A stretch of DNA of 64,000 nt from Gemmatimonadota bacterium (GTDB lineage: Bacteria > JBHIER01 > G020348925), in contig CP070758.1 in assembly GCA_020348925.1 (NCBI GenBank), forward strand, positions 2,183,688 to 2,247,687. The letters are read 5' to 3'. Position numbers and translations under genes: made by a program. Of the stretch, positions 36,534 through 63,380 are shown piece after piece. Positions within the stretch are counted from its first letter, which is position 1; each line of letters starts with the position of its first letter. Under the pieces are notes generated by a model. It saw only the letters and a program-made list of their open reading frames with translations, did not search any database and was not told the origin of the DNA.

Positions 36534-37307
36534 CTATCTGTTTTTCCAAACAGGTTTTCTCTTGTTCAGAAAGGCGCTTAATCCCTCATGAGCATCCTCC
36601 AAGCTCATGAGTTGATCAAGATAGACGGATTCAACATTCGAAATGGCTTCATCGACACTGGCATACAGCCCGATATCCACGGCCTTCTTCGTCAGCCTCA
36701 AGACAGGAGCGCTCAACGATTGCAGTTTGCTGACAAACTCTTCGGCTTTCTCCTGAAAATGTTCGTGAGGAAAAACTCTGTTTATCAACCCGATCCTCTC
36801 TGCTTCTCGGGCGCTTATAATTTCTCCGGTCAAGACCAACTCCAGGGCACGGTTTCTCCGGACGAGATGAGGAAATATTACGGCAGCAATAGGTGGGAGG
36901 ACACCGACCTTGATCTCGGGTTGGCCAAAGGTGGCCTCATCGGACGCGAGGACCATATCGCAAAACGTGGCCAGCTCGCAACCGCCCCCCAGGACCGCCC
37001 CGTGAACCACGGCCAGTGTCGGAGGCTCCAATGAATTGAGCAGTCGAAACATGCGGTGGAAGATTTCAATCATTTCGCTCACTTTCTCGGCCGTGTGTTC
37101 CTTGACGTCCACTCCCGCTGAAAAGGCCTTTCCCTCGCCGTTGAGGACCATCAACTTCACATCGGTCTTCGATTGAAGTTCCTCCAAGACCGTATTTATT
37201 TCCTTCATCATTTCAATGTTGAGGACATTCAGCGGCGGTCGGTTCAATATGATACGGGCCACACCATCTTTCTCCTCAAAAAGGATATGTTTCCAATGCT
37301 CCGGCAT
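36534..37307 (-). CDS. Enoyl-CoA hydratase/isomerase (crotonase) family protein; possibly dienoyl-CoA hydratase-like
   Basis: 257 aa. Crotonase fold motifs (...GEGKAFSAGVDVKE..., ...VHGAVLGGGCELA...). Confidence 0.8.
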   Translation of the reverse strand: MPEHWKHILFEEKDGVARIILNRPPLNVLNIEMMKEINTVLEELQSKTDVKLMVLNGEGKAFSAGVDVKEHTAEKVSEMIEIFHRMFRLLNSLEPPTLAVVHGAVLGGGCELATFCDMVLASDEATFGQPEIKVGVLPPIAAVIFPHLVRRNRALELVLTGEIISAREAERIGLINRVFPHEHFQEKAEEFVSKLQSLSAPVLRLTKKAVDIGLYASVDEAISNVESVYLDQLMSLEDAHEGLSAFLNKRKPVWKNR

Positions 37308-37420: not shown

Positions 37421-38608
37421 TTACGACTCGCGTTTTATTACTGTCGCCATGGTCACACCACCCCCACCGCAGATTCCCGCCACACCGTATTCACCGTCAT
37501 GGTGTTTCAACGCATAATAGAGTGTTACCAGGATCCTCGCCCCGCTGATACCCGTCGGATGGCCGAGGGCGATGGCCCCACCGTGGACGTTCACTTTTGA
37601 CCGGTCCCATTTGAGCACCTGTTCGTTGGCCAGCACCTGAACGGCGAAAGCCTCGTTGACCTCGATGAGATCCATAGTGTCCAAGGTCATGCCCGCCTTT
37701 TCCAAGGCCATGGGTATGGCTACACCGGGCCCCTCGCCCATGGTCGAAGCCTCAACGGCCGTGGAGGCATAGGAGACAATGGAGAAGAGTGGAGCAAGCC
37801 CCAGTGCTTTCGCCTTCTCCCGGGACATGACTACCATGGCAGTGGCCCCATCGGACATCTGACAGGCGTTACCGGCCGTGACCGAACCGTCTTTCTTGAA
37901 GACGGGTGGAAGCTTGGCCAGCTTCTCCACAGAGGTATCTTTGCGGATCGTCTCATCCTTGTCAAAAATGATCGGATCGCCCTTGCGTTGCGGCACCTCA
38001 ACAGGCACCAACTCTTCATCAAATCGCCCTTCATCCTGGGCCTTGGCCGCTTTCTGGTGGCTTTCAAAGGCAAACTGATCCTGATCCTCCCTGGAGATCT
38101 TATATTTTTCAACAAGGTTCTCGGCCGTCTGCCCCATACCCATGTCGTTCAAAGGATCGATGGAGTCGCTCCAGCCGTCCAAAATCTTCTTGTCCCCCAT
38201 CTTGAATCCCTGCCACCGGACATCTTTCAGCAGATAGGGAATGGTGCTCATGCTGTCCATCCCCCCGATGACTATGATCTCTCCGTCACCGAGGCGAATG
38301 GCCTGCGATGCCAGAGCTAAGGCCTTCATGGCTGAAGGACAGGCCTTGTTGATGGTATTGGTTGGAACCGACATCGGCACCCCGCCGCGCACGGAGGCGG
38401 TCCGTGAGGGATTGGGCCCGTTCCCCGCCTGGCGACAGTGGCCGAGGATCACCTCGTCAACCTGGTCCCCTTTGAGACTCGCCCTCTTCAGCGCTTCAGC
38501 AATGACTACTGCTCCGAGATCGTACGCGGGGATATCCTTCAACGTCCCCCCAAACCGTCCTGTCGGCGTCCGCACAGCGCTCACAACAACGACATCATTC
38601 AATTCCAT
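37421..38608 (-). CDS. Acetyl-CoA C-acyltransferase (thiolase); likely start MELNDVVVVSAVRTP
   Basis: Thiolase N-terminus ...RTPTGRFGG..., active-site Cys region, and C-terminus ...GICGGGG. Confidence 0.85.
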   Translation of the reverse strand: MELNDVVVVSAVRTPTGRFGGTLKDIPAYDLGAVVIAEALKRASLKGDQVDEVILGHCRQAGNGPNPSRTASVRGGVPMSVPTNTINKACPSAMKALALASQAIRLGDGEIIVIGGMDSMSTIPYLLKDVRWQGFKMGDKKILDGWSDSIDPLNDMGMGQTAENLVEKYKISREDQDQFAFESHQKAAKAQDEGRFDEELVPVEVPQRKGDPIIFDKDETIRKDTSVEKLAKLPPVFKKDGSVTAGNACQMSDGATAMVVMSREKAKALGLAPLFSIVSYASTAVEASTMGEGPGVAIPMALEKAGMTLDTMDLIEVNEAFAVQVLANEQVLKWDRSKVNVHGGAIALGHPTGISGARILVTLYYALKHHDGEYGVAGICGGGGVTMATVIKRES

Positions 38609-38709
38609 GAATTCCACCCTTTCTCTGAGATCGGAGTTACGCTTTTGCTGCTTCTTCAATGAGAACTGAAACCCATAAATGGGCAACTCCTAAAGAATGC
38701 ACCATACTT

Positions 38710-39453
38710 TTAAATATACTGCCCTCCATCCACCTTAATCACTTCACCCGTAATATGCCGGGCTTTCTCCGAACACAAAAATGTGACGACCGTGGCCACA
38801 TCTCCCGGAGTACCCAACCGTTTGAGAACGGTCTCGTCGAGAGACGTCTGCTTGGCCTCCTCCGGCATCTGGGCCATCATATCGGTCAGGATGAGGCCCG
38901 GGGCGACGGCATTGACGTTCACCCCTGATTTCCCCAGCTCTTTGGCCACCGTTTTCGTCAACCCGATAATGCCCGCCTTTGAGGCCGAATAGTTGGACTG
39001 ACCGAATTTCCCCCTGAGACCGTTGATCGAGGTCAGATTCACGATCTTTCCGGACTTCTGTTCCCGAAAGAGGGGTGCCACCAACCGGATGAAATTAAAA
39101 TAGCCCTTGAGATTTGTGTTGAGCACTGTATCCCACTGCTCCTCCGTCATCTTCCAGATGACCCCGTCCCAGTTGATGCCGGCGTTGTTCACCAGAATGT
39201 CGATTCGGCCAAACTCCTTGAGCGCTGTATTGACCATGGTTTCAGCATCTGAGAACTTCGCCACATCGGCCTGAACGGCCGTGGCCTTTCGACCCATGGC
39301 CCTTATTTTTTCCGCCGCCGCCTCAGCTTCATCGGGATGTTTCCGATAGCTCAGGGCAACGTTCGCGCCGTTGGCACCCAAGTCCAAGGCGACTGCCGTG
39401 CCTATTCCCAAACTCCCACCGGTCACGATGGCCGATTTTCCTTCAAGATCCAT
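38710..39453 (-). CDS. SDR-family oxidoreductase (3-oxoacyl reductase / 3-hydroxyacyl-CoA dehydrogenase-like); likely start MDLEGKSAIVTGG
   Basis: TGGSLGIG Rossmann motif, NNAG, and the catalytic YxxxK (YSASKAG). Confidence 0.85.
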   Translation of the reverse strand: MDLEGKSAIVTGGSLGIGTAVALDLGANGANVALSYRKHPDEAEAAAEKIRAMGRKATAVQADVAKFSDAETMVNTALKEFGRIDILVNNAGINWDGVIWKMTEEQWDTVLNTNLKGYFNFIRLVAPLFREQKSGKIVNLTSINGLRGKFGQSNYSASKAGIIGLTKTVAKELGKSGVNVNAVAPGLILTDMMAQMPEEAKQTSLDETVLKRLGTPGDVATVVTFLCSEKARHITGEVIKVDGGQYI

Positions 39454-39539
39454 AACGACCTCCTTTCTCACCATTCTCGAGACTTCTTTTCCAAACTCTC
39501 TCGATCGTTGTCAGCTAAAAATTTCCTCATGGACTAATG

Positions 39540-39650
39540 AGCCGCAACTATCAGGTTGTCGTTGCGAGGAGGGTTGTGCGGAGCCCAGCATGACGAAGCA
39601 ATCTCTTCATGGCATGAGATTGCTTCGCTCAGCTCGCAATGACAGATTAT
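39540..39650. repeat. REP-like element of the same GTCATT...AATC family (GTCATTGCGAGCTGAGCGAAGCAATC on the minus strand)
   Basis: Sequence similarity to the cores at 12816 and 13210. Confidence 0.45.
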
Positions 39651-39714
39651 TGGGTATGTTTAACCAAAAAACCATAGATGTGATTGCCACCACAGTAAGA
39701 GGTTCAAACGCAAC

Positions 39715-40863
39715 TCATTTTTTATTAACATGTTGTGGCTTCGGGAGAACTTCTTCCATAAGCTCATCGTCAACGGCTCGCCCCTCAGCTAAGAGCTGGC
39801 GATATTTGATAAAATCGATAACGTCCACGCCCGTCATCTTCTTTGTATTGAAGGCATGAAATCCCAAAAATGCCTCGGTTGCCATATTGGCGGCCAGCCA
39901 GTGGCGATTGGCCAGTTTCGTCTGATCCCAGAAGAACTTTTTCTTCATACGGATGCCATCGATCGATTTTATCAGACAACCCGGCATGAGGTTGGTGAAG
40001 GTCCACACGATTTTGTCGACCTCCTTGTCCAGAAGCTCAAAATCGGTAGCGGCGGTCTTCAGAAAGTCCCTGGCTTTTTTCCCCTCTTCTCCCGTCACAA
40101 AATCGCCGTAGACAATCTCACCGTCCTCAAGATATGTATCAGTGATCACGGCGGGATTTCTGATAAATTGGCCATCCTGCTTGATAACCGGAGCAACCTT
40201 GCTCACCAGGCCCAGTCGCTTCATCTTGTAGGCGCTCCACAGCTCGCAGGAGACGCAGTTCCACATGGCATCCTCAATACCCAGAAACCAGGGCAGAAAA
40301 TCCGTGGAGCCTCCGTCAGGGGCCGAACCGTGTCTCGGTCCGGCCTGACCGAATATGGCCGTATCCGCTGCAACGGCGAGGTCGCAGGCCATGCCGATCT
40401 CCTGCCCACCCGCCACCCTCATTCCATTAACACGACAGATGGTCGGCTTCTTGCACATCAGTATGGCATCGACCATGCCATTGAAGAGGTCCATATACTG
40501 CCCGTACTCTTCGGGCTTTTTTGAATAATACTCGGCGTACTCCTTCGTGTTTCCACCGGTGCAAAAGGCCCTGTCCCCGACAGCCGTGAAGACCACGGCG
40601 ACCACACGTCGGTCCACGGAAGCCCTGTGGAATCCGGCGATCACGCCTTTGACCATCTCCGTCGTATACGAATTATACTGCTTCGGATTGTTCAGCGTAA
40701 TCCAGGCCGTTTTCAAGACATCGATTTCGTTTCCTTTATTGTCAATGATCGGCCGCAGCTCGTACATCGTACACGGCGGCTCGGTCCCGAAATGTTCGTC
40801 TCCCCAGAGCGTATGATCTTTTATCTCATGATCGCGCGGCAACCAATCCAAGGCCATTCCCAT
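39715..40863 (-). CDS. bamA: 6-oxocyclohex-1-ene-1-carbonyl-CoA hydrolase-like ring-cleaving crotonase (BamA/Oah-type), 382 aa
   Basis: Crotonase superfamily at the unusual length of about 380 aa. It contains QYNSYTT and QEIGMA, the peptide motifs targeted by the commonly used bamA degenerate primers. Confidence 0.65.
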   Translation of the reverse strand: MGMALDWLPRDHEIKDHTLWGDEHFGTEPPCTMYELRPIIDNKGNEIDVLKTAWITLNNPKQYNSYTTEMVKGVIAGFHRASVDRRVVAVVFTAVGDRAFCTGGNTKEYAEYYSKKPEEYGQYMDLFNGMVDAILMCKKPTICRVNGMRVAGGQEIGMACDLAVAADTAIFGQAGPRHGSAPDGGSTDFLPWFLGIEDAMWNCVSCELWSAYKMKRLGLVSKVAPVIKQDGQFIRNPAVITDTYLEDGEIVYGDFVTGEEGKKARDFLKTAATDFELLDKEVDKIVWTFTNLMPGCLIKSIDGIRMKKKFFWDQTKLANRHWLAANMATEAFLGFHAFNTKKMTGVDVIDFIKYRQLLAEGRAVDDELMEEVLPKPQHVNKK

Positions 40864-40951: not shown

Positions 40952-41761
40952 TCAATGCATGAATTGCTGCAACACATTCGTATGGTTTCGACAGAACTCG
41001 TACGGAGATTCCAACTGGGCGTGAATCATCTCTTTTTGCCAGTGTGCGTTGTAGAGCCTGCAATTCGGATCGTCGCAGAAAGGATCTCCGGTCATGTGAT
41101 AGAAGACCGCTTGCATTATATAACCCTTCAGAATCTCCGTCATCCTTTCATCGTTGTGCTCGACAAACTCTCCTCGAAACTGTTCCTGGAGTTGATACGT
41201 GTCACTCGACCGACCGATGGCAGCGAACTGTTGCTTCAACAGATAAAACGCTTTCGGCCTGGCCGGTCCTTCAATGACTCCGGTCGTTGAGATAACACAA
41301 GGCATTCCAAAGATAGCCACCCTGGCGTGATAGCGTCTATCGTTTGCGTCGTAGGTTCCAAGCAGCTGGTTCGAAAGAACAATGTGAAGGTGATCATGAT
41401 TCCGCTCTTCGTCAGGTATCCACTCCCAAAGGATTCTTAGGAATGTGACCCCGTCGTACAAAATCCCAAAGGGTTTCGATTCCGGCCTTCGAAGAAACTT
41501 TCGTTCGTAGTCAACCTCTGCCGGCAATGGCTTAAAAACAACCTCAGGTTTTTCAAGGCTTCGCACCTTACATCGGGCCAATCGCTCCGCCACCTCATTC
41601 ATCTCATCATCCTCACCGCTCAGTTGATGCCCAAAGAACTCGCCCCGAAGTGTAACCGGAATCCCTCCCATCCTTTGCCCAACATAGTCGATCAACTCCG
41701 AAGTATGAAGGGTTCCGGCGCTGGGAGCGTCATAGAGATGAACATGTTTTAAAATGTGCAT
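40952..41761 (-). CDS. Hypothetical protein (269 aa), no recognisable family
   Basis: Long ORF with coding-like composition, sitting in an operon-like array. Confidence 0.45.
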   Translation of the reverse strand: MHILKHVHLYDAPSAGTLHTSELIDYVGQRMGGIPVTLRGEFFGHQLSGEDDEMNEVAERLARCKVRSLEKPEVVFKPLPAEVDYERKFLRRPESKPFGILYDGVTFLRILWEWIPDEERNHDHLHIVLSNQLLGTYDANDRRYHARVAIFGMPCVISTTGVIEGPARPKAFYLLKQQFAAIGRSSDTYQLQEQFRGEFVEHNDERMTEILKGYIMQAVFYHMTGDPFCDDPNCRLYNAHWQKEMIHAQLESPYEFCRNHTNVLQQFMH

Positions 41762-41808
41762 TTCGTTTCTATGACGCAGAAAACCTGAGATCGAAACCGC
41801 AGGATCCT

Positions 41809-42585
41809 CTACATTTTTTCTTCGATGACCTCAGCCACCCTCTTCCCCGAGAGCAGCATGGCTCCGAAGGTCGGCCCCATCCGCGGCAGTCCGTACACGG
41901 TTGAAACGGCCATTCCACCGACAACAAGGCCGGGATGGACTTCACCTGTGTGCTCGACGACCAAATCCTCCGATCGCTCCACCCACATGGCTCCGAAGCC
42001 CACTGTCTTGACGAGACCTCTCTCCTCAAGCTTGCTCACAACGCAGGCATCGTGGCCCGTGGCATCGACCACCATCTTACACTCGATGGCCACGGGATCG
42101 ACGCACGTGATCTCCCTGGGCATAGCCGATATCGGGGTCCAGTTGATGACCACACCCCCCAACCGATTCTCTTCCCTGAGGACGACGTCATCGAAGAGGG
42201 TCATGTTCGCAACCTTCACCCCCGCATCACAGGCGGCCCCGATGAGCTTGGAGCACGCGTGGGGACCATCGGCCACGTACAAACCCTCCACGGCTTTCTC
42301 ATAAGGAACACCCAGCTCATCCAGTACCTTCTGAGCCGGATCACGGACGGTGACTTTATTCATCAGGTATCCACCGATCCAGAAACCGCCTCCCAGATAG
42401 TTGTTCCGCTCGATGATCAGAACTTTTCTCCCCTTTGATGACAGCTCCCTGCCTGCCATGAGACCGCACGGCCCGGCCCCAACAATGATGACATCGCTCT
42501 CAGCATATTCTGAGAACTGCTTTAAAAAACCACCCACAATGGCGCGGGTGACCTCTTTCTCTCCGACAGGTTTAAAAATTGGCAT
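41809..42585 (-). CDS. thi4: Thi4-family thiazole synthase (sulfide-dependent type likely)
   Basis: [21 protein letters not shown]-binding motif, ...VVDATGHDA..., and C-terminal ...[21 protein letters not shown]. Confidence 0.75.
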
Positions 42586-42790: not shown

Positions 42791-44002
42791 TTACAGTGCT
42801 TCCACCAGCAGCGCAATGCCCTGGCCGCCGCCGATACACATGGTCGAGATGCCGTAGCGCGCCTTTCTTCTGCGCAACTCCATAATGAGCTTGAAAGTCA
42901 AAATACAGCCTGTGGCTCCCAGCGGATGCCCCAGGGCAATAGCCCCGCCGTTGACGTTCACTTTGTTCCGGTCCAGCCCCAGTTCCCTTTCAACGGCCAC
43001 ATATTGAGGTGCAAAGGCTTCGTTGATCTCCCACAGATCGATGTCATCAATGGTCAGGCCGGCCTTCTCCAAGGCCATTCTCGAAGACGGGGCCGGACCG
43101 ATGCCCATGATCGTGGGATCGACAGCAGCTATTCCCCAGGAGACCAATCTGGCCAAAGGTGTCAGATTGTGCTCTTTTGCCTTCTCCATGGTCGTCACCA
43201 CAACCGCCGCCCCCCCATCGACAATACCGCTGGCGTTGCCCGCCGTAACGAGGCCACCTCTCCCGAAGGCCGGACGCAGCTTGGCCAACGCCTCGAGGGT
43301 TGTATCAGGTCGGCAATGGTCGTCCTCGTTTACGACGGTCACGTTGCCTTTGCGATCCGTAATCTCGACCGGGACCTTCTCCTCCTCAAACAGCCCTTTT
43401 TCAATAGCCGCGCTGCCCCTCTTCTGGGACTCTAAGGCGAACTGATCCGAATCCTCGCGGGTCACCCCGTATTTTCTCGCCAGCTTCTCGGCCGTCTGGG
43501 CCATAAACATACCGATGAGGGGATGGTTCAGGGATTGAAAGAGCACATCTTCCAACAAGACACCCGGCCCAAAACGCATGGGCGTTCCCCGAATACCGCG
43601 AACGGCATACGGCGTCTGGCTCATGGACTCCATACCACCGGCCAGCACAAAATCAGCTTCATCCAGCAAGATCATCTGAGTACCGGTGACGATCGCCTGC
43701 GCTCCTGACCCACAGATGCGATTCACAGTCAAAGCAGGCGTTTCAATTGGGATTCCCTCGATCCTCAAGCACACATCCCTGGCGCCGTAGAGTGCATCAA
43801 CGGCATCATGATTGGCATTCCCCATGACGACATGGTCGATCCATTCAGGCTTCACCTGAGACCGCTTAATCGCTGCCCTGCCTGCTATCGCACCCAGCTC
43901 GCACGCGCTGAAATCCTTCAATTTCCCGGCACCGGGGGTCCCGGCGTATTCGGCCATGGGTGTCCTGGCACCACCAACGATGACTATGTCTTTCTGGAGC
44001 AT
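42791..44002 (-). CDS. Acetyl-CoA C-acetyltransferase (thiolase); likely start MLQKDIVIVGGARTP after a GGAGGA RBS
   Basis: Thiolase N-terminus and C-terminal ...CIGGGQG... motif. Confidence 0.85.
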   Translation of the reverse strand: MLQKDIVIVGGARTPMAEYAGTPGAGKLKDFSACELGAIAGRAAIKRSQVKPEWIDHVVMGNANHDAVDALYGARDVCLRIEGIPIETPALTVNRICGSGAQAIVTGTQMILLDEADFVLAGGMESMSQTPYAVRGIRGTPMRFGPGVLLEDVLFQSLNHPLIGMFMAQTAEKLARKYGVTREDSDQFALESQKRGSAAIEKGLFEEEKVPVEITDRKGNVTVVNEDDHCRPDTTLEALAKLRPAFGRGGLVTAGNASGIVDGGAAVVVTTMEKAKEHNLTPLARLVSWGIAAVDPTIMGIGPAPSSRMALEKAGLTIDDIDLWEINEAFAPQYVAVERELGLDRNKVNVNGGAIALGHPLGATGCILTFKLIMELRRRKARYGISTMCIGGGQGIALLVEAL

Positions 44003-44028
44003 ACGTATTCCTCCTTGTCGTAATTTAT

Positions 44029-44301
44029 TCAAAACTTCCCAAAAAACATGGCAATCCCAATAATAACAAAAAGAACAGCCGCACCTTTGTGGACGTAAGC
44101 AACCGGAATAATTTTTGTGATCGTCTGACCGAAGGCGACGCCAATTGCTGTCACAATTGCCAAGGCAATAATGGCCCCGCAAAAGACAATGACAGGTCTT
44201 TGCGTCTTGGCCGTCATTGAAATAGCCACCAACTGCGTTTTGTCACCGAATTCGGCCAGTAGAAAAGCGACAAAAGTGGAGATAAGCACTTTCCAGTTCA
44301 T
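44029..44301 (-). CDS. UPF0016/GDT1-family small membrane protein (single-repeat form)
   Basis: E-x-G-D-K-T motif (LAEFGDKTQL) plus two further hydrophobic helices. Confidence 0.6.
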   Translation of the reverse strand: MNWKVLISTFVAFLLAEFGDKTQLVAISMTAKTQRPVIVFCGAIIALAIVTAIGVAFGQTITKIIPVAYVHKGAAVLFVIIGIAMFFGKF

Positions 44302-44376
44302 AAAAACCTCAGAATTGAAATGGTTCGACCCAAATTGGAAACGTTCGAAAATAACGTCCCGCATCCGTATGTCGGC

Positions 44377-45315
44377 CTAAGCCGGGATGGCTTCTCGCAC
44401 ATACGTCAGCCAGCCGTGTCGATCCTCCTTTTCACCGGATGTAATGGCAAAGAATTCTTCTTGAAGTTGCTTCGTAATAGTTCCGACCGATCCATCTCCG
44501 ACGGGAATTTTATCGATGTACCCGATGGGTGTAATCTCGGCCGCACTGCCTGTAAAAAAGACTTCGTCGGCGATATAGAGACCTTCTCTGGGGATAAGCT
44601 GCTCGACAACCTCGTATCCCAACTCTTTGGCAAGTGTTATAATCGAATCCCTGGTGATACCCGGTAGAACAGAGGCCCCAAGGGGTGGAGTGCACAGAAC
44701 GTCGTCGTTGACGATAAATATGTTTTCACCGCTCCCCTCACTGACATACCCATACACATCCAATGCGATCCCTTCCATGTAGCCATCCTTTACCGCTTCC
44801 ATTTTTATAAGTTGTGAATTCATGTAGTTGGCCCCGCATTTGGCCAAAGCCGGAAACGTATTCGGAGCCATCCGTGCCCAGGAGGACACCCTGACCGAAA
44901 CACCTTTGTCAAGTGCCCCCTCCCCCAAATATTGTCCCCATCCCCATACGGCGATGGTTACTTCCACAGGGCAATTGAAGGGATTGACCCCGACATCACC
45001 GTATCCTCTGTAAACGACAGGCCGGACGTAACACTCCTCCATCTTATTCACACGAATGGTCTCTAAACAAGCGTCAAGAATCTCCTGTTTCGCGTAGGGT
45101 ATCTCCATCCGATAAATCTTGCACGAATCATACAACCTATCAATGTGCTCTTGGAGGCGAAAACAGGCCGAACCTTTCTTCGTCTTGTAACAACGCAATC
45201 CCTCAAAAAGACTTGTTCCATAATGGATGACGTGGGATAGAATGTGGATGTTGGCATCATCCCAATTGACAAATTTCCCGCTCATCCAGATCTTTTCGGA
45301 CTTTTCAAACGGCAT
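44377..45315 (-). CDS. ilvE: Branched-chain amino acid aminotransferase (class IV aminotransferase)
   Basis: 312 aa. ...YGTSLFEGLRCY... and ...FFTGSAAEITPI... motifs. Confidence 0.85.
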   Translation of the reverse strand: MPFEKSEKIWMSGKFVNWDDANIHILSHVIHYGTSLFEGLRCYKTKKGSACFRLQEHIDRLYDSCKIYRMEIPYAKQEILDACLETIRVNKMEECYVRPVVYRGYGDVGVNPFNCPVEVTIAVWGWGQYLGEGALDKGVSVRVSSWARMAPNTFPALAKCGANYMNSQLIKMEAVKDGYMEGIALDVYGYVSEGSGENIFIVNDDVLCTPPLGASVLPGITRDSIITLAKELGYEVVEQLIPREGLYIADEVFFTGSAAEITPIGYIDKIPVGDGSVGTITKQLQEEFFAITSGEKEDRHGWLTYVREAIPA

Positions 45316-45356
45316 GAGCCTTCTCCTTTCCCAGAGGGTGAGAAACTCGTTTACGA

Positions 45357-46505
45357 CTATTTCAGAAGACTGGCAGCGATCACCATCCGCTGCACTTCAG
45401 AAGTGCCCTCATAAATCTCGGTAATCTTCGCATCCCTGAACAACCGCTCCACCGGATACTCTTTCATGTATCCGTATCCCCCATGGATTTGTATGGCCTT
45501 CGTTGTCGTCCTCATCGCCACTTCTGAAGCAAAAAGCTTGGCCATGGCCGCTTCCTTCGAATACCGTCCACCACTGTCCTTGGCCCGGGCCGCCTGGTGG
45601 ACCAGATGCCGGGCACCCTGAATCTCAGTCTCCATATCGGCCAGCATCCACTGAATAGCCTGAAATTCACAGATCGGCTTTCCGAACTGGGTGCGCTGTT
45701 TCGAATAGGCAATCGATTCATCAAGGGCGGCCTGGGCAATTCCCAGGGCCTGAGCAGCGATCCCAATTCTCCCTCCGTCGAGGGCATCCAGGGCGATCTT
45801 GAATCCCATTCCTTCTTCACCCAAGAGGTTCTCTTTGGGCACCTTGCAATCTTTGAAAACGAGCTCAGACGTATCACTGGCCCGAATACCGAGCTTGTTC
45901 TCCTTCTTTCCCACCTCGAAACCATCCCATTTCTTCTCAACGATGAAAGCATTGATGCCCTTGTACTTCTGTTCCTTGTCGGTCATGGCAAAAACCACCA
46001 CGGTATCCGACTTGCCCCCGTTGGTGACGAAGATCTTCGTACCATTAATAACGTAGTGATCTCCATCTCTAACGGCGGTGGTCTGCAGGTTCCCGGCATC
46101 GGAACCTGCGTCCGGCTCGGTTAAGGAAAAGGAACCCAGATGCGTTCCATTGGCCAAGGGAACGAGATATTTCTTCTTTTGCTCCTCGTTGCCGTATCTG
46201 AAAATCGGATGACACACGAGGGAGTTGTTTACCGACATGGTCACCCCACATGAAGCATCACCACGGGAAATCTCCTCCACGGCAATGACATAACTGACAG
46301 TGTCCATACCGGCACCGCCGTATTCCTCCGGGATCATCATGCCCATGAATCCCAATTCACCCATCTGTTTGACCTGTTTGGCCGGGAATTCCTCGGTTTC
46401 GTCTCGCTCTGCAGACTCCGGTTTTAACTCATTCTCAGCGAAATCTCTGGCAGTTTTTTTAATAAACTGCTGCTCCTCAGTCAGTCCAAATTCCAAAAGC
46501 CTCAC
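45357..46505 (-). CDS. Acyl-CoA dehydrogenase (short/branched-chain type)
   Basis: 382 aa. ACAD N/M/C domain motifs (...GSFSLTEPDAGSDAG..., ...YEGTSEVQRMVIA...). Confidence 0.9.
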   Translation of the reverse strand: MRLLEFGLTEEQQFIKKTARDFAENELKPESAERDETEEFPAKQVKQMGELGFMGMMIPEEYGGAGMDTVSYVIAVEEISRGDASCGVTMSVNNSLVCHPIFRYGNEEQKKKYLVPLANGTHLGSFSLTEPDAGSDAGNLQTTAVRDGDHYVINGTKIFVTNGGKSDTVVVFAMTDKEQKYKGINAFIVEKKWDGFEVGKKENKLGIRASDTSELVFKDCKVPKENLLGEEGMGFKIALDALDGGRIGIAAQALGIAQAALDESIAYSKQRTQFGKPICEFQAIQWMLADMETEIQGARHLVHQAARAKDSGGRYSKEAAMAKLFASEVAMRTTTKAIQIHGGYGYMKEYPVERLFRDAKITEIYEGTSEVQRMVIAASLLK

Positions 46506-46588
46506 CTCCTCATCGCTTCGATCATCATTGATCTTGTACTCATGACTTTGTTGCTTTTCGACTCTTCGACTTTTTTACATTTCGACTT

Positions 46589-47776
46589 TTAAACAATTTC
46601 AAGACTCATGGCTACGGCTCCGCCACCTCCAAGACACAGGGTGGCCAGACCTGTCTTGAGGCCGCGATCCTTCAAGGCATAAATCAACGTTGTCACCACC
46701 CGCGCCCCGCTGGCCCCGATGGGGTGGCCTAGAGCGATGGCTCCCCCGTGGACGTTGACCCGGTCCCAGTCCCAGCCGAGTCCTCTGCCGTCGGCCAGAC
46801 ACTGGGCAGCAAAGGCCTCGTTCGCCTCGATCAGATCGAAGTGGTTGATGTCCACACCCAGTTTTTCCATCAATTTCCCCACGGCCACAATAGGGGCAAA
46901 GAACACATCCTTGGGCTCCATGAAGCCGGAGGCATATCCCGTGATTTTGGCCATAGGCTGAATACCCAATGCCTCGGCTTTATCCGCTCCCATGACGACG
47001 ACGGCAGAGGCACCGTCGTTCAATCCAGGAGCATTTCCGGCCGTCACCATTCCGTCCTTTTGAAAGGCGGGCTTGAGTTTTGCCAATCCTTCGAGGGTCG
47101 TTTCCGCCCGCGGCGTCTCATCGGTGTCGATGACAAGAGGATCCCCTTTCCTCTGAGGAATCTCGACCGGCACGATTTCCTCTTTGAATTTCCCATCGCT
47201 CATCGCCTTGGCCGCCTTCATCTGGCTGTTGTAAGCGTACTCGTCAAGCTCCTCCCTCTTCAAGCCGGCCTTTTGAGCCGTATACTCCGCCAGATTTCCC
47301 ATGTGGACATTCTCGAAAGCGCACCACAAACCATCATAGATGAGGACATCGATCATCTTCTGATCGCCGAATTTCACTCCGTCCCGGATTTTCTTAACGA
47401 CGTACGGACACTGACTCATGGATTCCATACCACCACCAACGACGACGTCGGCCTCCCCAAGCTTGATCGCTTGGGCCCCGAAGACGATGGCCTTCAGGCC
47501 TGATCCACATACTTTGTTGATCGTGGTTGCAGGCACCTTCGCCGGCAGGCCACCTTTGAGTGTGGCCTGTCTGGCCGGTGACTGACCCAGACCGGCCTGA
47601 ACCACATTGCCCATGAACACCTCGTCGACCTGATCTGGCTCGATCCCGGATCTCACCACCGCCTCTTTGATGACAACACCGCCTAAATCTTGCGGCAAGA
47701 GTGACGAAAGACCGCCCAGGAACCGTCCGCTGGCTGTCCGACAACAACCGGTAATAACGACATCACGAGTCTCCAT
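46589..47776 (-). CDS. Acetyl-CoA C-acyltransferase (thiolase); likely start METRDVVITG after a GAGGAGGG RBS
   Basis: Thiolase motifs, with C-terminal ...CLGGGGAVAM. Confidence 0.85.
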   Translation of the reverse strand: METRDVVITGCCRTASGRFLGGLSSLLPQDLGGVVIKEAVVRSGIEPDQVDEVFMGNVVQAGLGQSPARQATLKGGLPAKVPATTINKVCGSGLKAIVFGAQAIKLGEADVVVGGGMESMSQCPYVVKKIRDGVKFGDQKMIDVLIYDGLWCAFENVHMGNLAEYTAQKAGLKREELDEYAYNSQMKAAKAMSDGKFKEEIVPVEIPQRKGDPLVIDTDETPRAETTLEGLAKLKPAFQKDGMVTAGNAPGLNDGASAVVVMGADKAEALGIQPMAKITGYASGFMEPKDVFFAPIVAVGKLMEKLGVDINHFDLIEANEAFAAQCLADGRGLGWDWDRVNVHGGAIALGHPIGASGARVVTTLIYALKDRGLKTGLATLCLGGGGAVAMSLEIV

Positions 47777-47813
47777 AAGCCCTCCTCGTTTTGGATTTTG
47801 GATTTTGGATAGT

Positions 47814-48665
47814 TTAATCATACTGAACCCTTTCCACCGTCTCGACAACCCACCTCCCTTCTCTCTCCCGCAGATACCCCATGCCAATCGCCGGAGAGTG
47901 GACGAAGACCAACAGCCACTCTTCTGCCAGGGCTTGATTGAGAATTCTTTCTTTTGCCTCTATTGTCTGCATCGGATACAGATCGTAGCTCATAATATAG
48001 GGAATTTTGATGTGTGAGGTCATGGGAACCAGATCTGCCAGAAAGAGGGCTGTTTTTCTATCAGATTCGATCTTCACGACCTGATGGCCCTCGGTGTGAC
48101 CGCCGGCGGGGATGACTCGGAGTCCATCGGTCACTTCTTCCTCTCCCTCAACGAGCCGAAGCAATCCATGTTCTTCCAAAGGAAGGAAATGCTCCCTTGA
48201 ATAATTGTTCTTCGTACGAATGTTGGGATGTAAGGCCGCCTCCCATTCAGCCCGCTGCAGAACATAGGTTGCCTTGGGGAAGGTCGGAATGAATCCCCCG
48301 CTGCCATCACCAACCGTATTCCAGCCGACGTGATCGAAATGGAGGTGGCTGCAAATAACAATATCGATGTCCTCAGGCTTCACACCGAGCATATGTAACC
48401 TATCCATGAGTGTCTTCGGCTGTACCACTCCGAAGATACCTTTTGACTTTGGCTCAAGCCTGTTCCCTATACCCGTTTCGATAAGAATGTTATTCTCTCC
48501 CGTACGAATCAATAAAGAATTCAGTCCCATAAGAATGCGATTGTTCTCATCAGGAGGATCGATTCTCTGCCACAGCATTTTCGGCACCACACCGTACATC
48601 GATCCCCCGTCCAACCGGAACGTCCCGTCGCTCAACAGATGGAGTTCGAATGTTCCAAGTTTCAT
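47814..48665 (-). CDS. MBL-fold metallo-hydrolase
   Basis: HxHxDH motif (SHLHFDHVGW). 283 aa. Confidence 0.8.
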   Translation of the reverse strand: MKLGTFELHLLSDGTFRLDGGSMYGVVPKMLWQRIDPPDENNRILMGLNSLLIRTGENNILIETGIGNRLEPKSKGIFGVVQPKTLMDRLHMLGVKPEDIDIVICSHLHFDHVGWNTVGDGSGGFIPTFPKATYVLQRAEWEAALHPNIRTKNNYSREHFLPLEEHGLLRLVEGEEEVTDGLRVIPAGGHTEGHQVVKIESDRKTALFLADLVPMTSHIKIPYIMSYDLYPMQTIEAKERILNQALAEEWLLVFVHSPAIGMGYLREREGRWVVETVERVQYD

Positions 48666-48668
48666 GAA

Positions 48669-49805
48669 TTAATCCCGTAGCAATTGTCGAGCTATTACCA
48701 ATCTCTGAATCTCCGACGTCCCTTCACCGATCTCCGTCAATTTGGCGTCGCGCATGAATCGCTGCACCGGATATTCTCTCATATAACCCCGGCCGCCGTG
48801 AATCTGGACCGCATGGATCGTCGACCGCATGGCCACCTCTCCGGCGTACAGCTTGCACATGGCCGCCTCTTTGGTGAAGCGCACCCCAGAGTCCTTCATC
48901 CGAGAGGCATGATAGACCAAATGGCGAGCCGCTTCAATCTCCGTGGCCATATCCGCAATCTTCCATTGAATGGCCTGCAAATTGGCTATCGGCTTTCCGA
49001 ACTGAATTCGCTCCTTGGCCCATTCGATACTGGCATCAAGGGCTCCCTGCGCAATGCCCAGAGCCATGGCACCAATACTGATCCTGCCACCGTCCAGGGT
49101 GATCATGAACTGTTTGAAGCCCTCGCCCTCTTTTCCCAAGATATTCTCTCTCGGAATCCGGCAGTTCTCGAATATCAGCTCACACGTGTCGGAGCCCCGA
49201 AGCCCCAGTTTATTCTCCTTTTTTCCGATTGTAAAACCGGGCGTTCCACGTTCAACGATAAAGGAGCTGATGCCTTTCGTCCCTTTGCTCTTGTCGGTCA
49301 TGGCCGTAAAAACCACCGTCTTGGCAATACTGGCATTGGTGATAAAGCACTTTGTTCCATTGATGACGTAGTCATCGCCGTCCAGAACCGCCGTCGTCTG
49401 CGTTCCGGCAGCATCGGAACCGGCGTTCGGTTCGGTCAGGCCGAAGGCCCCGATCTCCTCGCCCTGCGCCAGGGGGATAAGATATTTCTTCTTCTGCTCC
49501 TCCGTCCCAAAGGCGTAAATAGGAAACGATCCGAGAGAAATATGTGCTGCATACGTGATGCCCGTCGATCCGCACACCCGTGAGATCTCCTCCACGGCGA
49601 TGGTGTAATGCATCGTATCTTTCCCCGCCCCGCCATACGCTTTCGGAAAATTGATACCCATGATGTCCAGCCTTGCCATCTCCTTGACGGTGTCCCAGGA
49701 AAATTCTCCGGTCCTGTCGATCTCCTCTGCCTTGGGCTCAATGATCTCCTTGGCAAAGGTTCGCATTTTCTGTTGAAACGCAAACTCCTCCTGCGTCAGT
49801 TCCAT
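48669..49805 (-). CDS. Acyl-CoA dehydrogenase; likely start [11 protein letters not shown]
   Basis: ACAD motifs (...[16 protein letters not shown]..., ...[15 protein letters not shown]...). Confidence 0.9.
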
Positions 49806-49818
49806 TCTTCCTCCGATC

Positions 49819-50334
49819 TCAGTCAGCCGATCCCTCAAGAGGAGCAATCTCCACAAGAGGGACGCCCGCATCCACCAGATCACCATCGTTGTAATGTATT
49901 TTTTTCACCCGTCCATCTATGGGCGATCGCAGGGCATTTTCCATCTTCATCGACTCCACAATGATCAGGCTCTGATTTTTCTCCACGTGGTCGCCCTCAG
50001 TCACTTGAATTTTCACAACCGTCCCTGGCATGGGTGCGGCAAGGGACTGCTCCCCCGATGCAACCGAACCTCCCCTAACATATCCAGACCGAGCGGTCTC
50101 TTCAACCTCCTCCAGACAGAAATGATACCCATCGATATGGAGGTATCTTTTCTGTTCACTCGCAGCGATGGAGACCTTATATGATCGACCCTCGACCAAG
50201 AGGGACAGGCAATTTTCAGAAATAGGGCGAGCGTCAACAGGCACAGGGCCATCTCCAAAATCAATCGTGTAGTTTTCACCATCTGAGCGAACATCTATCT
50301 TGTATTGTTTTCCAGAAACTCCAAATTCGTATTC
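49819..50334 (-). CDS. Biotin carboxyl carrier protein domain protein (BCCP part of a split acyl-CoA carboxylase alpha subunit)
   Basis: C-terminal biotinyl domain with the ...[11 protein letters not shown]... (AMKM-type) biotinylation motif. Confidence 0.75.
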
Positions 50335-55356: not shown

Positions 55357-55749
55357 TCACACCGGAACACATTTGTATCCGTAACAGAGGATGCCCGCTT
55401 CACCCACAGTCTGGATCCGACGAAATTCGACCTTCACCTTCTGGCCGATCTCCAGATGCTCCACGTCGCAGTCAACGACCTGAGCTGTCAGTCGCACGCC
55501 GTCATTCAATTCGACGATCCCGATCGCATAGGGCGCTTCATCGACAAATTGGCTCGGGGCCACGCGAATGACGGTGAACGTCTGCAACGTCCCCTCATCC
55601 TTCAGACGGACGATCTCGAATTCCCTGGCCCCGCACGCACAGACCAACCTCGGAGGGAAATAGGTCTTCCCGCAGCGGGTACATTTGCCCGCCTCCAGTC
55701 TGTACCTTTGAGGAATTTCACGCCAGTATCTCGCTGGTGTCACCATCAC
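55357..55749 (-). CDS. DUF35 Zn-ribbon/OB-fold protein (partner of SCP-x-type thiolase / HMG-CoA synthase)
   Basis: [18 protein letters not shown] zinc ribbon followed by an OB fold. It overlaps the upstream thiolase gene by 4 nt. Confidence 0.8.
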
Positions 55750-56903
55750 TGCACCTCCAATATATGCACAAGGGTGCTGCCACCACTGCCGCCCATATTC
55801 TGCGTCAATCCAACCCGGGCACCCTCAACTTGTCGTTTGTCCGCCTCTCCGCGAAGCTGTTTCACAATCTCAACAACCTGGGCCACACCTGTGGCTCCCA
55901 CAGGATGGCCCTTGGCCTTGAGGCCCCCGCTGGCATTCACCGGTATCTTTCCCCCCAGAGCCGTCAGTCCGCTCTCGGCCGCCGTCCCCCCTTTGCCCTT
56001 CTCAATGAACCCCAAAGCCTCAATGACACAAATCTCCGCTATGGTGAAACAGTCATGCACTTCGGCCAAATCGATATCCTCGGGCTTCTTACCGGCCATC
56101 TGATAGGCAGCTTCCCCTGCCTTGGCCGTAGCGTTCAAGGTCGTAACATCGTCACGGCTGTGGAGGGCTATGGTATCTGTGGCATGACCGACCCCGGTTA
56201 TTTTCACGACCGGCTTATCCGTTAGGGTCTTAGCCATATCAAGGGGACACAGGATAACGGCAGCGGCCCCGTCTGTGATGGGCGAGCAATCGAGGATCCT
56301 GAGCGGGTCCGCCACCATGACAGAGCTCAGGACACCCTCAACCGTCACCTCGAACGGATACTGAGCCAACGGATTCAAGGCTCCGTGCCGATGATTCTTG
56401 ACCGCGACATGAGCCAGTTGTTCTCGTGTCGTTCCATAGGTGTGCATATGGGCCCGGGCCATCATCGCATAGAGACCCGGAAAGGTAACTCCATGAAATC
56501 CTTCATATTCTTGATCGGCCGCCGTGGAAAGGGCGTAAGTGGCCTGATCCCCACCGACGTCGGTCATTTTTTCCACACCGGAGACGAGAACGATATCGCT
56601 GAAGCCCGCGGCCACTTCGAGAAAACCCTGCTTGACGGCCAGACCACCGGAAGCACACGCCGATTCGACTCTTGCCGCGGGAATAGGGCCCATGCCCAGG
56701 TAATCGGCCAGCTGGGAGGCCAGATGTTCCTGCCCGACAAAGAGTGCGCTGGTCATGCATCCCACATACATCGAATCGATGTGATCGACGCCGGCATCAT
56801 CGATGGCCAAGAGGGCTGTCTCCACAAAGATATCCCTGAGGGCTTTGTCCCACAGCTCCCCCCATTTCGTCATACCGATTCCAATGACTGCTACATCCCT
56901 CAT
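55746..56903 (-). CDS. Thiolase-domain protein of the SCP-x/archaeal acetoacetyl-CoA thiolase type; likely start [15 protein letters not shown]
   Basis: ...[15 protein letters not shown]..., ...ESACASG..., and C-terminal ...[16 protein letters not shown], then ATG at 56903. Confidence 0.85.
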
Positions 56904-56913
56904 TATCCTTCTC

Positions 56914-57963
56914 CTATTCAGTAATCTTGTTGATTTTGCCTCGAAATTTCGCGTAGGTCCCGTATTCAAGATAATTCTTGTTGCTGTCCAGCATCACCCT
57001 CGTCTTCGGTGCCATATCACGCACCTCTTCGATTCGGTCAGTGACGGTGAAGATGAACCCATCGCTGCCAGCCCCGGAACCATAGGAGCACATCAGAATT
57101 TTGTCTCCCGGAACGGCGATATCCAACGTGGCCGTCAAGCCCATGGGCGATGAACCGGAATAGGTGTTGCCCAGCTTCGGAACCAGCCAGCCCGGCTCAA
57201 TCTGTTCCCGCTTGAAGCCCAGCATCTTGCCGACCCTCATGGGAAACTTTCCGTTGGGCTGATGGAATATGGCGTAGGCGAAATCCTCGGGCTTCATTTG
57301 GGCCTTCTCCATGATGCCCCTGGCACATCCGGTGATGTGTTTGAAATAGGCCGGCTCACCTGTGAATCGGCTGGCATGCCGGGGATAATACTGATACTCC
57401 CGTCGCCAGAAATCGGGCGTATCGGTCATAAAGGCGTAAGTCAGATCGACGGAGGCAACAATATTCTGCTTCCCGAAGATGAAGGCCGCTGCTCCCGCCG
57501 AGGCTGCATATTCTAAGGCGTCACCCGGGGCTCCCTGGGACGTATCCGCACCGATGGCCAGACCGTAAGAGATGTGTCCTGCCTCAACCTGACTGAGAAC
57601 GACGTACATACCCTCCGAGCCGGCCTTACAGGCAAACTCAAAATCGGCCGTATGGACCTCCGGCGTCGCTCCCAGAGCTTCGGCCACTACTGTTCCGCTC
57701 GGTTTCACGGCATACGGATGGGATTCCGAACCGATATAGACAGCTCCGATCTCTTGGGGATCGATCCCCGCTCGCCGTAATGCATGTTTCGAAGCCTCAA
57801 CCGACATCGTGATCGTATCCTGATCCGGGGATGGTACGGACTTCTCTTCCAACATCAATCCTCTCTTGTAGCTCGGTGCATCTGCGCCCCACACCTTGGC
57901 AATCTCTTCCACTCGAATTCTATTTCTCGGCATGTAGGCACCATAGCCAACAATTCCAACCAC
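56914..57963 (-). CDS. Hydroxymethylglutaryl-CoA synthase (archaeal-type, about 350 aa)
   Basis: [12 protein letters not shown]..., ...[13 protein letters not shown]..., ...FHQPNGKFP... Confidence 0.85.
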
Positions 57964-59716: not shown

Positions 59717-59745
59717 CATGCAGTTGTTGAGCATTGGTTTCAGGA

Positions 59746-60153
59746 GGCCAAAGCAGACCGTAAGCCGAGTTCTGTATGTGATGACCATCTATCTCGTTCT
59801 GACGTTGCCGTCAGAATCAAGCGACCGACCCGAGAGTTGTGGCCTAACGGGCCGTTAGGCTTCGTCGAAAATACTTTCGGCGAATCCTCTCCTATTTGGT
59901 CTTGCACCGAGTGGGGTTTACCAAGCTCCCGATGTCACCAGCGGGACTGGTGAGCTCTTACCTCACCTTTTCACCCTTACCCCGTGAGATGGTGATGTCA
60001 CCTCTCCCCTGGGGCGGTTTCCTTTCTGTGGCACTTTCCTTATCCCGACCAACCGAGACACTCTGTGTTACGGAGCACCCTGCCCTGCGGTGTTCGGACT
60101 TTCCTCCCTTCCAATCTCAATGGCCATCGAGATTGGAAGAGCGATCATCTGTT
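59746..60153 (-). ncRNA. rnpB: RNase P RNA, bacterial type A
   Basis: Minus-strand sequence contains GGGAGGAAAGTCCGAACACCGCAGGGCAGGGTGCTCCGTAACA, ACAGAAAGGAAACCGCC, GTAAGAGCTCACCAG, GGTAAACCCCACTCGGTGCAAGACCAAATAGG and 3' ACAGAACTCGGCTTA. P1 is predicted from GGCCAGAGCAGAAC (5') pairing with GGTCTGCTTTGGCC (3'). The ends are approximate to about +/-10 nt. Confidence 0.75.
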
Positions 60154-62165: not shown

Positions 62166-62200
62166 GGTGTGCAGCGCACTATATTAGTGTGCAACGCACA
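62166..62200 (+). promoter_or_regulatory. Tandem imperfect palindromes GTGTGCAGCGCAC and GTGTGCAACGCAC flanking TATATTAGT. This is a candidate operator and -10 region for the PhaR-like gene.
   Basis: Read directly. It lies 16 bp upstream of the AAGGAGG RBS and ATG at 62216. Confidence 0.4.
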
Positions 62201-62215
62201 AAAGGAGGTGTATCT

Positions 62216-62876: not shown

Positions 62877-63380
62877 TCAAGGCCGTATTGTAATTTTTCC
62901 CGATCCCGATGAGACAGGGATCGTCTGTGCGTCTTGAGTGGCCAGCATGGCTTTTGTTAGGTCAAGGCTGATCGTCCCGGATGCGTTTTGAGCCACATTT
63001 ACCGGCAGCATGAGAATCGGACCGCTCCCCGGAGAGATGGTTTTGCCACTCATATCATACAACATGAGCAGCAACTCTCTCTCCTTTATATTGTGCATGA
63101 CCATCATGTCGGCTGTGCGGCTTGTCGTCCTCGGAGCATCAACGGTCACAGCATTAGAATCGAATTGAATATTTAACTGAACCCCTGCTATGTCAACATG
63201 ACTTTCCAAGGAGATGGGCACTTCGACGTTTCCCCCTGGTCTGGCCACAACACTTCCAACAGTAATAGCAGAGTCCTTCGTCCCGACGTTTTCCTCAACT
63301 TCGGATTTCGACCCACAATTTGCCAAGACAGCAACTGCCGTAATGAACACCGCAACATACAATGGAGATATTTTTTTCAT
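62877..63380 (-). CDS. Lipoprotein with a cohesin-like beta-sandwich domain (likely start MKKISPLYVAVF..., lipobox LANC)
   Basis: GGAGGG RBS, then ATG at 63380. ...ITVGSVVARPGGNVEVPISLESHVDIAGVQLNIQFDSNAVTV... resembles a cohesin domain. Confidence 0.5.
   Translation of the reverse strand: MKKISPLYVAVFITAVAVLANCGSKSEVEENVGTKDSAITVGSVVARPGGNVEVPISLESHVDIAGVQLNIQFDSNAVTVDAPRTTSRTADMMVMHNIKERELLLMLYDMSGKTISPGSGPILMLPVNVAQNASGTISLDLTKAMLATQDAQTIPVSSGSGKITIRP

Follow-up and report, generated by a model that had tools for sequence, protein, structure and literature searches.

The gene bamA, also called oah, encodes 6-oxocyclohex-1-ene-1-carbonyl-coenzyme A (CoA) hydrolase (Oah) and is a functional marker for anaerobic aromatic degradation; hydration of a ring C=C bond combined with hydrolysis of a C–C bond, to give 3-hydroxypimelyl-CoA, is the established chemistry of the Oah family. 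The BamA of Geobacter metallireducens (Gmet_2088) and the Oah of Thauera aromatica share 76% identity (Butler et al. 2007, PMC1924859), and in G. metallireducens the adjacent genes Gmet_2057–2059, which encode an enoyl-CoA hydratase-type crotonase (ech), a thiolase and a short-chain dehydrogenase, were induced 15–32-fold on benzoate (PMC1924859). Class I (Bzd-type) benzoyl-CoA clusters have been published for sediment metagenome-assembled genomes (MAGs) of Aminicenantes, Thermoplasmata, Zixibacteria and KSB1 (Dong et al. 2019, PMC6472368; PMC11704145), and a recent study termed the step from 3-hydroxypimelyl-CoA to glutaryl-CoA "unexplored" in archaea (PMC11704145). Benzoyl-CoA-pathway genes are already reported in Zixibacteria, KSB1, Gemmatimonadota, Aminicenantes and Thermoplasmata MAGs. 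Here we describe an oah gene in a 64,000-nucleotide stretch of a Gemmatimonadota-labelled genome (GCA_020348925.1, contig CP070758.1, positions 2,183,688–2,247,687), which as a whole is called the window.

Our analysis revealed that oah stands at the head of a run of four genes, followed by a FabG/PhaB-like short-chain dehydrogenase (SDR), a thiolase and a crotonase (Table 1). The reading that we favor, and hold to be probable while leaving real room for others, is that oah opens a conserved oah–SDR–thiolase–crotonase module with the pathway roles proposed below. The window gene is a further example of a known enzyme family and not proof of aromatic degradation by the organism, because the window holds only part of the pathway.

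Family membership and active site of the Oah protein

The crotonase-superfamily open reading frame (ORF) of 382 amino acids (aa) that a preliminary description of the window had reported was confirmed on the minus strand; two overlapping plus-strand ORFs (39371–39859 and 39856–40524) were taken as shadow ORFs. Against TIGR03200, the NCBIfam equivalog model of Oah, the protein scored 566.5 bits (cutoff 464.45), and residues 14–373 matched positions 1–360 of the 360-position model, i.e., its full length. The next-best model was BadI, for which the score lay below the equivalog cutoff (102.7 vs 467.6 bits), as was the case for MenB (93.8 vs 342.7 bits), and the matches of both models were limited to the N-terminal crotonase core (residues 52–234). 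Comparison with 74 homologues taken from species-representative genomes showed 73–82% identity to the window protein and at least 66% identity for all pairs in the set; at the near-invariant columns of the family (≥97% conserved among the 74 homologues), the window protein matched 154 of 154. This level of conservation is normal, because the characterized BamA/Oah pair is itself 76% identical (PMC1924859); the two values fall in a similar range, with the 73–82% of the window protein measured against the homologues from species-representative genomes.

When 1.84 billion representatives at 50% identity were searched exhaustively with HMMER, the Oah family proved discrete: a few full-length clusters scored 334–463 bits, most other matches above ~140 bits were partial metagenomic pieces, and generic crotonases reached at most 135 bits and covered only approximately residues 52–237. 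No Oah structure was found in the PDB, where the best solved relatives were MenB enzymes (94 bits, residues 53–233 only), and tblastn for Oah against the PLSDB plasmids gave no match. A homologue search seeded with a deltaproteobacterial Oah (locus L080) adjacent to 6-hydroxycyclohexenoyl-CoA dehydrogenase (Had) returned MAG proteins only. Relatives at 73–82% identity adjoin equivalog-level Had and BzdN/BzdO. Judged by its sequence, the window protein is a bona fide member of the Oah/BamA family, and the earlier assignment as a bamA/oah-type hydrolase stands on the full-length passing of TIGR03200, the discreteness of the family and the genes beside which its relatives lie.

The protein of ~380 aa consists of a crotonase core of ~250 aa and a family-specific C-terminal region of ~150 aa. 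Glu155, located in GGQE, aligns with what we take to be the first catalytic Glu of the classical crotonase, and the position of the second catalytic Glu is occupied by a MenB-like stretch, GQAGPRHGS (GQxGPxxGS). For BadI (2-ketocyclohexanecarboxyl-CoA hydrolase) and MenB (1,4-dihydroxy-2-naphthoyl-CoA synthase), (retro-)Claisen-type C–C chemistry is established. The crotonase fold and the GQxGPxxGS segment are common to Oah and these two enzymes; unlike them, Oah keeps the crotonase Glu and has the extra C-terminal region. We infer that such an active site would fit hydration and retro-Claisen cleavage combined.

Directly in front of the first ATG of oah, and 6 nt ahead of the second one, is an AGGAGG ribosome-binding site. 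Since this spacing fits the second ATG and the alignment of the homologues begins at residue 3 of the 382-aa ORF, the true start is probably the second ATG (40857), which would give a protein of 380 aa. The peptides QYNSYTT (residues 62–68) and GGQEIGMA (residues 152–159) had been recognized in the preliminary description as those of the bamA primers, and rightly so: the sites of both primers, SP9F and ASP1R, which were given with a conserved 300-bp target by Porter & Young 2013 (PMC3794298), were found in the DNA (Table 1). The predicted amplicon from the window DNA was 292 bp, and a match of the SP9F type occurred in none of 100 shuffled sequences. The primer-motif peptides, the ~300-bp amplicon and the ~380-aa length of characterized Oah/BamA proteins are all matched by the window protein.

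The four-gene module and its relatives

The ORFs of 80 related oah loci (designated by L numbers) were clustered and their recurrent neighbors annotated; a locus counted as full-flank if 8 kb or more were available on each side of oah (n = 36). The closest Oah proteins were 77–93% identical to that of the window, with no database entry above 93%, and came from Aminicenantes, Latescibacteria, KSB1, Zixibacteria, Eiseniibacteriota, LCP-89 and Ignavibacteriales as well as Calditrichaeota, Planctomycetota, Anaerolineae, Bacteroidota, Desulfarculaceae and Thermoplasmata archaea. The gene order oah–SDR–thiolase–crotonase was repeated in L003, L008, L048 and L081, and more than 40 loci showed variants of it. 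The usual order was oah, SDR, thiolase (or an archaeal-type thiolase with DUF35), optionally a DUF2889 gene, and crotonase, and the four-gene module was spread over many phyla and Thermoplasmata archaea. The FabG-like SDR was the most conserved partner of oah: of the 73 loci in which an Oah ORF was called, 51 had the SDR, in 47 of these 51 no more than three genes away from oah, and its orthologues, including archaeal ones, were 58–77% identical to the window SDR.

Annotation of the recurrent neighbors revealed that 30 of the 36 full-flank loci contain a Had-like or benzoyl-CoA reductase (BCR)-like gene, of the Had, Bzd, ATPase or zinc-dependent alcohol dehydrogenase (Zn-ADH) type, within 10 kb. 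The neighbors in related loci included Had (TIGR03201, 498.5 bits vs cutoff 338.65), BzdN (492 bits vs cutoff 453.8) and BzdO (613 bits vs cutoff 448.6). BcrC-like (369 bits vs cutoff 421) and BcrB-like (439.5 bits vs cutoff 486.55) proteins in Bacteroidota and a 4-hydroxybenzoyl-CoA reductase alpha-like protein (926 bits vs cutoff 994.55) were also encoded there, and BcrAD-type ATPases, ADP-forming CoA ligases and SSF transporters were other common neighbors. Because so many full-flank loci have genes of these types nearby, a link of the Oah family as a whole to benzoyl-CoA degradation is well supported by synteny. The nearest neighbor of the window Oah in the tree belongs to a KSB1 locus, L003, in which an identically ordered module is followed by BzdN, BzdO and two ATPases; in the window, their position downstream of the crotonase is taken by a SusC-like TonB receptor. 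L081, whose Oah is 93% identical, has the DUF6775, Oah, SDR, thiolase, crotonase and TonB receptor genes arranged as in the window, and L048, from another Gemmatimonadota MAG, has oah–SDR–thiolase–crotonase without nearby BCR.

Archaeal Oah proteins, those of Thermoplasmata included (L006, L007, L013, L016, L019–L021, L032, L034, L045 and L072), were 74–79% identical to the bacterial one and nested among bacterial sequences in the tree, and archaeal oah loci carried, together with BzdN/O, a Zn-ADH of non-canonical type that scored 116 bits against the Had model; the nesting and the cluster content therefore imply inter-domain transfer of the whole cluster. Relatives of the Fibrobacteres–Chlorobi–Bacteroidetes (FCB) type (L003, L008, L041, L050, L058 and L059; e.g., L058:1806–11140) have leuB, leuC, optionally marR, thiolase and fadB-like genes, leuD and an isopropylmalate synthase (IPMS)-like gene before oah, and in L041 and L058 the end of the IPMS-like gene and the start of oah share 4 bp. 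These LeuB/C/D-like genes are probably ordinary leucine-biosynthesis genes, since their products pass the equivalog cutoffs, whereas the short IPMS-like protein stays below its own (208 vs 517); catabolic genes thus alternate here with those of a probable operon for leucine biosynthesis.

In the window itself, the flanks of oah (SDR, crotonase, thiolases and two acyl-CoA dehydrogenases [ACADs]) were present as described earlier. The SDR scored 286 bits on the FabG model, slightly below the cutoff of 298. The thiolase ORF opens with TTG, and the true start probably lies ~26 codons downstream; the gene product was 94% identical to that of a 395-aa gene in L081 and 73–74% identical to the same-position thiolases of L003, L008 and L048. 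GC content and GC content at third codon positions (GC3) of the module were typical of the window, and recent horizontal insertion of the module was rejected on account of these native-like values. The hairpin in the spacer between oah and the SDR gene (Table 1) folds as RNA with −34.9 kcal/mol (z = −2.5) and occurs in one copy in the window, whereas the spacer in the 93% relative L081 is longer, different and contains a 90-aa ORF; the hairpin may represent a small inserted element or a site of transcript processing/attenuation. The DUF6775 gene upstream of oah keeps its position in L081, but in the remaining loci no such gene adjoins oah. In the window, it is accompanied by the gene of a Thi4-type (sulfide-dependent) thiazole synthase.

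Canonical Had is a Zn-ADH (ADH_N + ADH_zinc_N; TIGR03201). Among the 36 full-flank loci, 15 contained the SDR orthologue together with a Zn-ADH and 12 contained the SDR without any Zn-ADH; in the 51 loci with the SDR, it directly adjoined the thiolase in 28 and a Zn-ADH in only 2. The closest solved structures of the SDR in the PDB were dehydrogenases of beta-hydroxyacyl thioesters, namely FabG, acetoacetyl-CoA reductases, a (3R)-hydroxyacyl-CoA dehydrogenase and BbsD. Because the SDR co-occurs with Zn-ADH and adjoins the thiolase, and because the gene order equals the reaction order, we place it at the step after Oah, where it is more likely to act as a 3-hydroxypimelyl-CoA dehydrogenase than as Had. 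The candidacy as Had that the preliminary description had given it is not upheld, in view of the co-occurrence and the thiolase adjacency and of the nature of Had as a Zn-ADH, of which the window has none. We propose that the adjacent thiolase is a 3-oxopimelyl-CoA thiolase, which would form glutaryl-CoA and acetyl-CoA. The benzoate-induced trio Gmet_2057–2059 of G. metallireducens (PMC1924859) is in keeping with both assignments.

The window crotonase fell below the equivalog cutoff for dienoyl-CoA hydratase (Dch; Table 1), and in complete clusters the crotonases that adjoin Had, BzdN or Oah likewise reached only 152–178 bits on TIGR03189; the low score was rejected as an argument against a Dch role, since these context-validated crotonases score alike. 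The window protein belongs to one orthologue group with the sole free-standing crotonase of complete BCR/Had/Oah clusters, and because of this orthology a function as Dch, for which it had been named a candidate, is plausible.

In the pathway that we propose, the Dch-like crotonase would hydrate cyclohexa-1,5-diene-1-carbonyl-CoA, as its orthology suggests, and a dehydrogenase would oxidize the resulting 6-hydroxy intermediate, a Had step that the window does not encode. Oah would then hydrate the ring double bond and cleave the C–C bond hydrolytically to 3-hydroxypimelyl-CoA, the FabG-like SDR would oxidize this product to 3-oxopimelyl-CoA, to judge from gene order and co-occurrence, and the adjacent thiolase would release acetyl-CoA and glutaryl-CoA. 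The ring-reducing enzyme and a canonical Had would be encoded elsewhere in the genome, or be absent.

Upper-pathway genes and alternative readings

In the 64-kb window, tblastn detected no Had/Zn-ADH homologue (clusters c7 and c25, searched with related-locus members), no BcrAD-type ATPase and no BzdN/O- or BcrB/C-type protein (E ≤ 1e-5), and neither a xanthine dehydrogenase (XDH)-type (4-hydroxybenzoyl-CoA) reductase nor a CoA ligase. Relaxing the upper-pathway search to E < 1 yielded nothing credible in the window, and no relics of BzdN/O, ATPase or Had were found downstream of the crotonase even at this threshold. The scanned window ORFs gave no Pfam match to the aldehyde:ferredoxin oxidoreductase (AOR) family (BamB-type). 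The earlier statement that no BCR lies in the window was borne out, as both tblastn with class I subunits and the Pfam AOR scan were empty.

The upstream block contains two further thiolases and the two ACADs (Table 1). The ACADs fell below the glutaryl-CoA dehydrogenase cutoff (NF045552, GlutCoADH_Des; 367.9 and 316.8 vs 470 bits) and below the cyclohexanecarboxyl-CoA dehydrogenase models (351/356 vs 650 and 248/225 vs 575), and their best model was AcrC (NF042972, acryloyl-CoA reductase; 549 and 530 bits, cutoff 640). A trio of archaeal-type 3-hydroxy-3-methylglutaryl-CoA (HMG-CoA) synthase, thiolase and DUF35 OB-fold protein adjoins a carboxyltransferase, a methylglutaconyl-CoA-hydratase-like crotonase and an AccC-like biotin carboxylase, and this region could serve leucine catabolism or an HMG-CoA/isovaleryl-CoA shunt. 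Assignment of the carboxyltransferase as a glutaconyl-CoA decarboxylase was rejected, because an ATP-dependent biotin carboxylase together with a methylglutaconyl-CoA-hydratase-like crotonase is a carboxylase arrangement. As IlvE, the carboxyltransferase, the biotin carboxylase, the methylglutaconyl-CoA-hydratase-like crotonase and HMG-CoA synthase are found together, the upstream genes read as a leucine/isovalerate-type block and not demonstrably as a pimelyl/glutaryl-CoA route. The preliminary description had seen in the window the full lower benzoyl-CoA/3-hydroxypimelyl-CoA pathway, which goes too far: no Had is present, the ACADs miss the glutaryl-CoA dehydrogenase cutoff and the upstream block appears to be of the leucine/isovalerate type.

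Several points weigh against a module with the roles proposed above. Had, BCR, 4-hydroxybenzoyl-CoA reductase and aromatic-acid CoA ligase are all missing from the 64-kb window, and the same upper-pathway genes are not beside the module in L081 or L048. Complete clusters of the L058 type also have a FadB-like 3-hydroxyacyl-CoA dehydrogenase, so that the SDR step is not uniquely fixed. The window crotonase could instead be a lower-pathway (beta-oxidation) enzyme, given that it misses the Dch cutoff and that G. metallireducens has, besides BamR (Dch), a separate ech in its benzoate-induced trio. We consider it possible, while leaning against it, that the module is real and uncoupled from ring reduction here, serving alicyclic acids or dearomatized intermediates of neighbors or persisting as a remnant of a larger cluster. 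For at least 10 kb around oah, neither BCR- nor Had-like genes occur in the window, L081, L048 or L010, in contrast to the 30 of 36 full-flank relatives that have them, the L003 module leads straight into BzdN, BzdO and two ATPases where the window has the TonB receptor, and the native-like GC and GC3 indicate that the arrangement is no recent insertion. However, the four genes are intact and Oah has every near-invariant residue, which argues against decay; the window ACADs fall short of the cyclohexanecarboxyl-CoA dehydrogenase models; and missing linkage proves little, since G. metallireducens encodes BCR away from oah (PMC1924859). If the module were uncoupled, a bamA signal from such an organism would over-report aromatic degradation.

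That the SDR is Had, which would make Dch, Had, Oah and thiolase a complete route from the dienoyl-CoA to the first thiolysis, is in our view unlikely. Neither the window nor its closest relatives have a Zn-ADH Had, and an SDR may conceivably take this role in lineages without Zn-ADH, such as the 12 full-flank loci mentioned above, because both substrates are beta-hydroxyacyl-CoAs, so that FabG-like chemistry would fit; BadH is an established SDR acting on an analogous alicyclic substrate. Such a role is at odds with the occurrence of 58–77%-identical orthologues in the 15 full-flank loci that also have Had or Zn-ADH, with the archaeal loci in which an ECH<ZnADH<OAH> arrangement (ECH, crotonase) is complemented by the SDR with thiolase and DUF35, and with the adjacency to the thiolase 28 times and to Zn-ADH twice; moreover, the module would then be without a 3-hydroxypimelyl-CoA dehydrogenase. 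We hold it to be distinctly unlikely that the module works without any BCR or Zn-ADH Had, with the SDR performing the Had step, and possibly the 3-hydroxypimelyl-CoA step as well, on cross-fed dearomatized or alicyclic CoA-ester precursors; were this the case, environmental bamA counts would partly represent organisms that do not degrade aromatics, and the Oah-linked SDR would be a new unannotated pathway enzyme. Reversal of the pathway is established for Syntrophus aciditrophicus, the thiolase, SDR, Oah and Dch steps are reversible in principle, and FabG/PhaB-like SDRs are typically reductive. Synthesis of cyclohexanecarboxylate/benzoate from acetyl-CoA and glutaryl-CoA units in fermentation is nevertheless very improbable as the function of the window module, as no set of glutaconyl-CoA decarboxylase, glutaryl-CoA dehydrogenase and cyclohexene-carboxyl-CoA reductase is recognizable in the window and nothing there indicates direction. 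Least probable, and nearly negligible, is a "long crotonase" with another substrate that owes the primer motifs to shared ancestry only: L010, L027, L043 and L078 are without recognizable pathway neighbors, but the protein passed TIGR03200 well above the cutoff at full length, and the family is tight as well as discrete, with close relatives inside Had/Bzd clusters. The conserved module headed by oah, with the SDR and thiolase acting after ring opening, remains the reading that we prefer.

Other features of the window and comparison with described systems

The window contains PorV-like proteins, C-terminal sorting domains of the type IX secretion system (T9SS) and SusC-like receptors, in agreement with the T9SS-bearing, FCB-type context described earlier, and a ~2.5-kb extension past the left window edge also carries T9SS genes. 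RecJ has KSB1 and Latescibacterota relatives at 55–60% identity. One SusC-like TonB-dependent receptor is a 1060-codon frame with a single in-frame stop at codon 640; it is intact in the Logan contig L082, which is 99.8% identical (18 mismatches in 10,307 nt, no gaps), and the stop reflects a nonsense polymorphism at the strain level or else an error of sequencing. A subtilase of 1476 aa combines a dockerin type I domain with a T9SS-type C-terminal domain, and a 199-aa protein has a cohesin domain; cohesin–dockerin parts are unusual in a T9SS-bearing bacterium. A PhaR-like regulator with PHB_acc_N and phasin domains suggests polyhydroxyalkanoate metabolism in the host.

Table 1 Positions of the oah module, the primer sites and further features in the window
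Feature	Position	Strand	Remarks
SusC-like TonB-dependent receptor with in-frame stop	6150–9332	−	
Subtilase	17525–21955	−	
Crotonase	36534–37307	−	ECH_1; TIGR03189 166.9 bits, cutoff 292.5
Thiolase	37421–38686	−	Thiolase_N + Thiolase_C; TIGR01930 460 bits
FabG/PhaB-like SDR	38710–39474	−	PF00106 + PF13561; probable start 39453
oah–SDR spacer, 240 bp	39475–39714	−	Perfect 11–12-bp hairpin at ~39593–39630
Oah/BamA-family ORF	39715–40863	−	382 aa, ATG start, crotonase fold
ASP1R reverse primer site	40389–40406	+	1 mismatch; inside GGQEIGMA codons
SP9F forward primer site	40659–40680	−	3 mismatches; encodes QYNSYTT
DUF6775/DUF7001 protein ("probable metallopeptidase")	40952–41761	−	Directly upstream of oah; Pfam 304 bits
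DUF6775 gene with Thi4-type thiazole synthase gene	40952–42585	−	
Upstream block: BktB-like thiolase, IlvE, ACAD, thiolase, metallo-beta-lactamase (MBL) lactonase-like, ACAD	42791–49886	−	NCBIfam + Pfam
Upstream thiolases	42791–44182; 46589–47887		
Upstream ACADs	45357–46505; 48669–49886		
Archaeal-type HMG-CoA synthase, thiolase, DUF35 OB-fold trio	55357–57963	−	TIGR00748 543 bits, cutoff 353
RecJ	58007–59788		
PhaR-like regulator	62189–62788	+	
Cohesin-domain protein	62877–63476	−	

A genuine bamA gene whose 64-kb neighborhood has neither ring reduction nor Had means that the marker reports ring opening and not the whole pathway. The conserved SDR and thiolase (in archaea, thiolase with DUF35) beside oah are likely the enzymes that lead from 3-hydroxypimelyl-CoA to glutaryl-CoA, a step missed by pathway-database annotation. 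The stand-alone module and the conserved SDR/thiolase pair are of modest value and do not overturn current understanding.

Comparison with the described systems showed that the window oah is not part of a cluster of had, dch and bcr like that of Thauera or of a cluster with bamB–I like that of Geobacter, and that its host, an uncultivated, Gemmatimonadota-labelled bacterium of the FCB type, is unlike those of the Thauera and Geobacter systems. Gmet_2057–2059 comprises the same three gene types as the window, mutually adjacent, in an organism whose benzoyl-CoA pathway is proven; unlike the window module, this trio does not adjoin bamA. The Bzd-type clusters of sediment MAGs add, within 10 kb, BzdN/O with two ATPases and Had or another Zn-ADH, together with 4-hydroxybenzoyl-CoA-reductase-like XDH genes, ADP-forming CoA ligases and transporters, all of which the window is without, whereas their Oah proteins are 73–82% identical to that of the window and have the same SDR, thiolase and crotonase partners.

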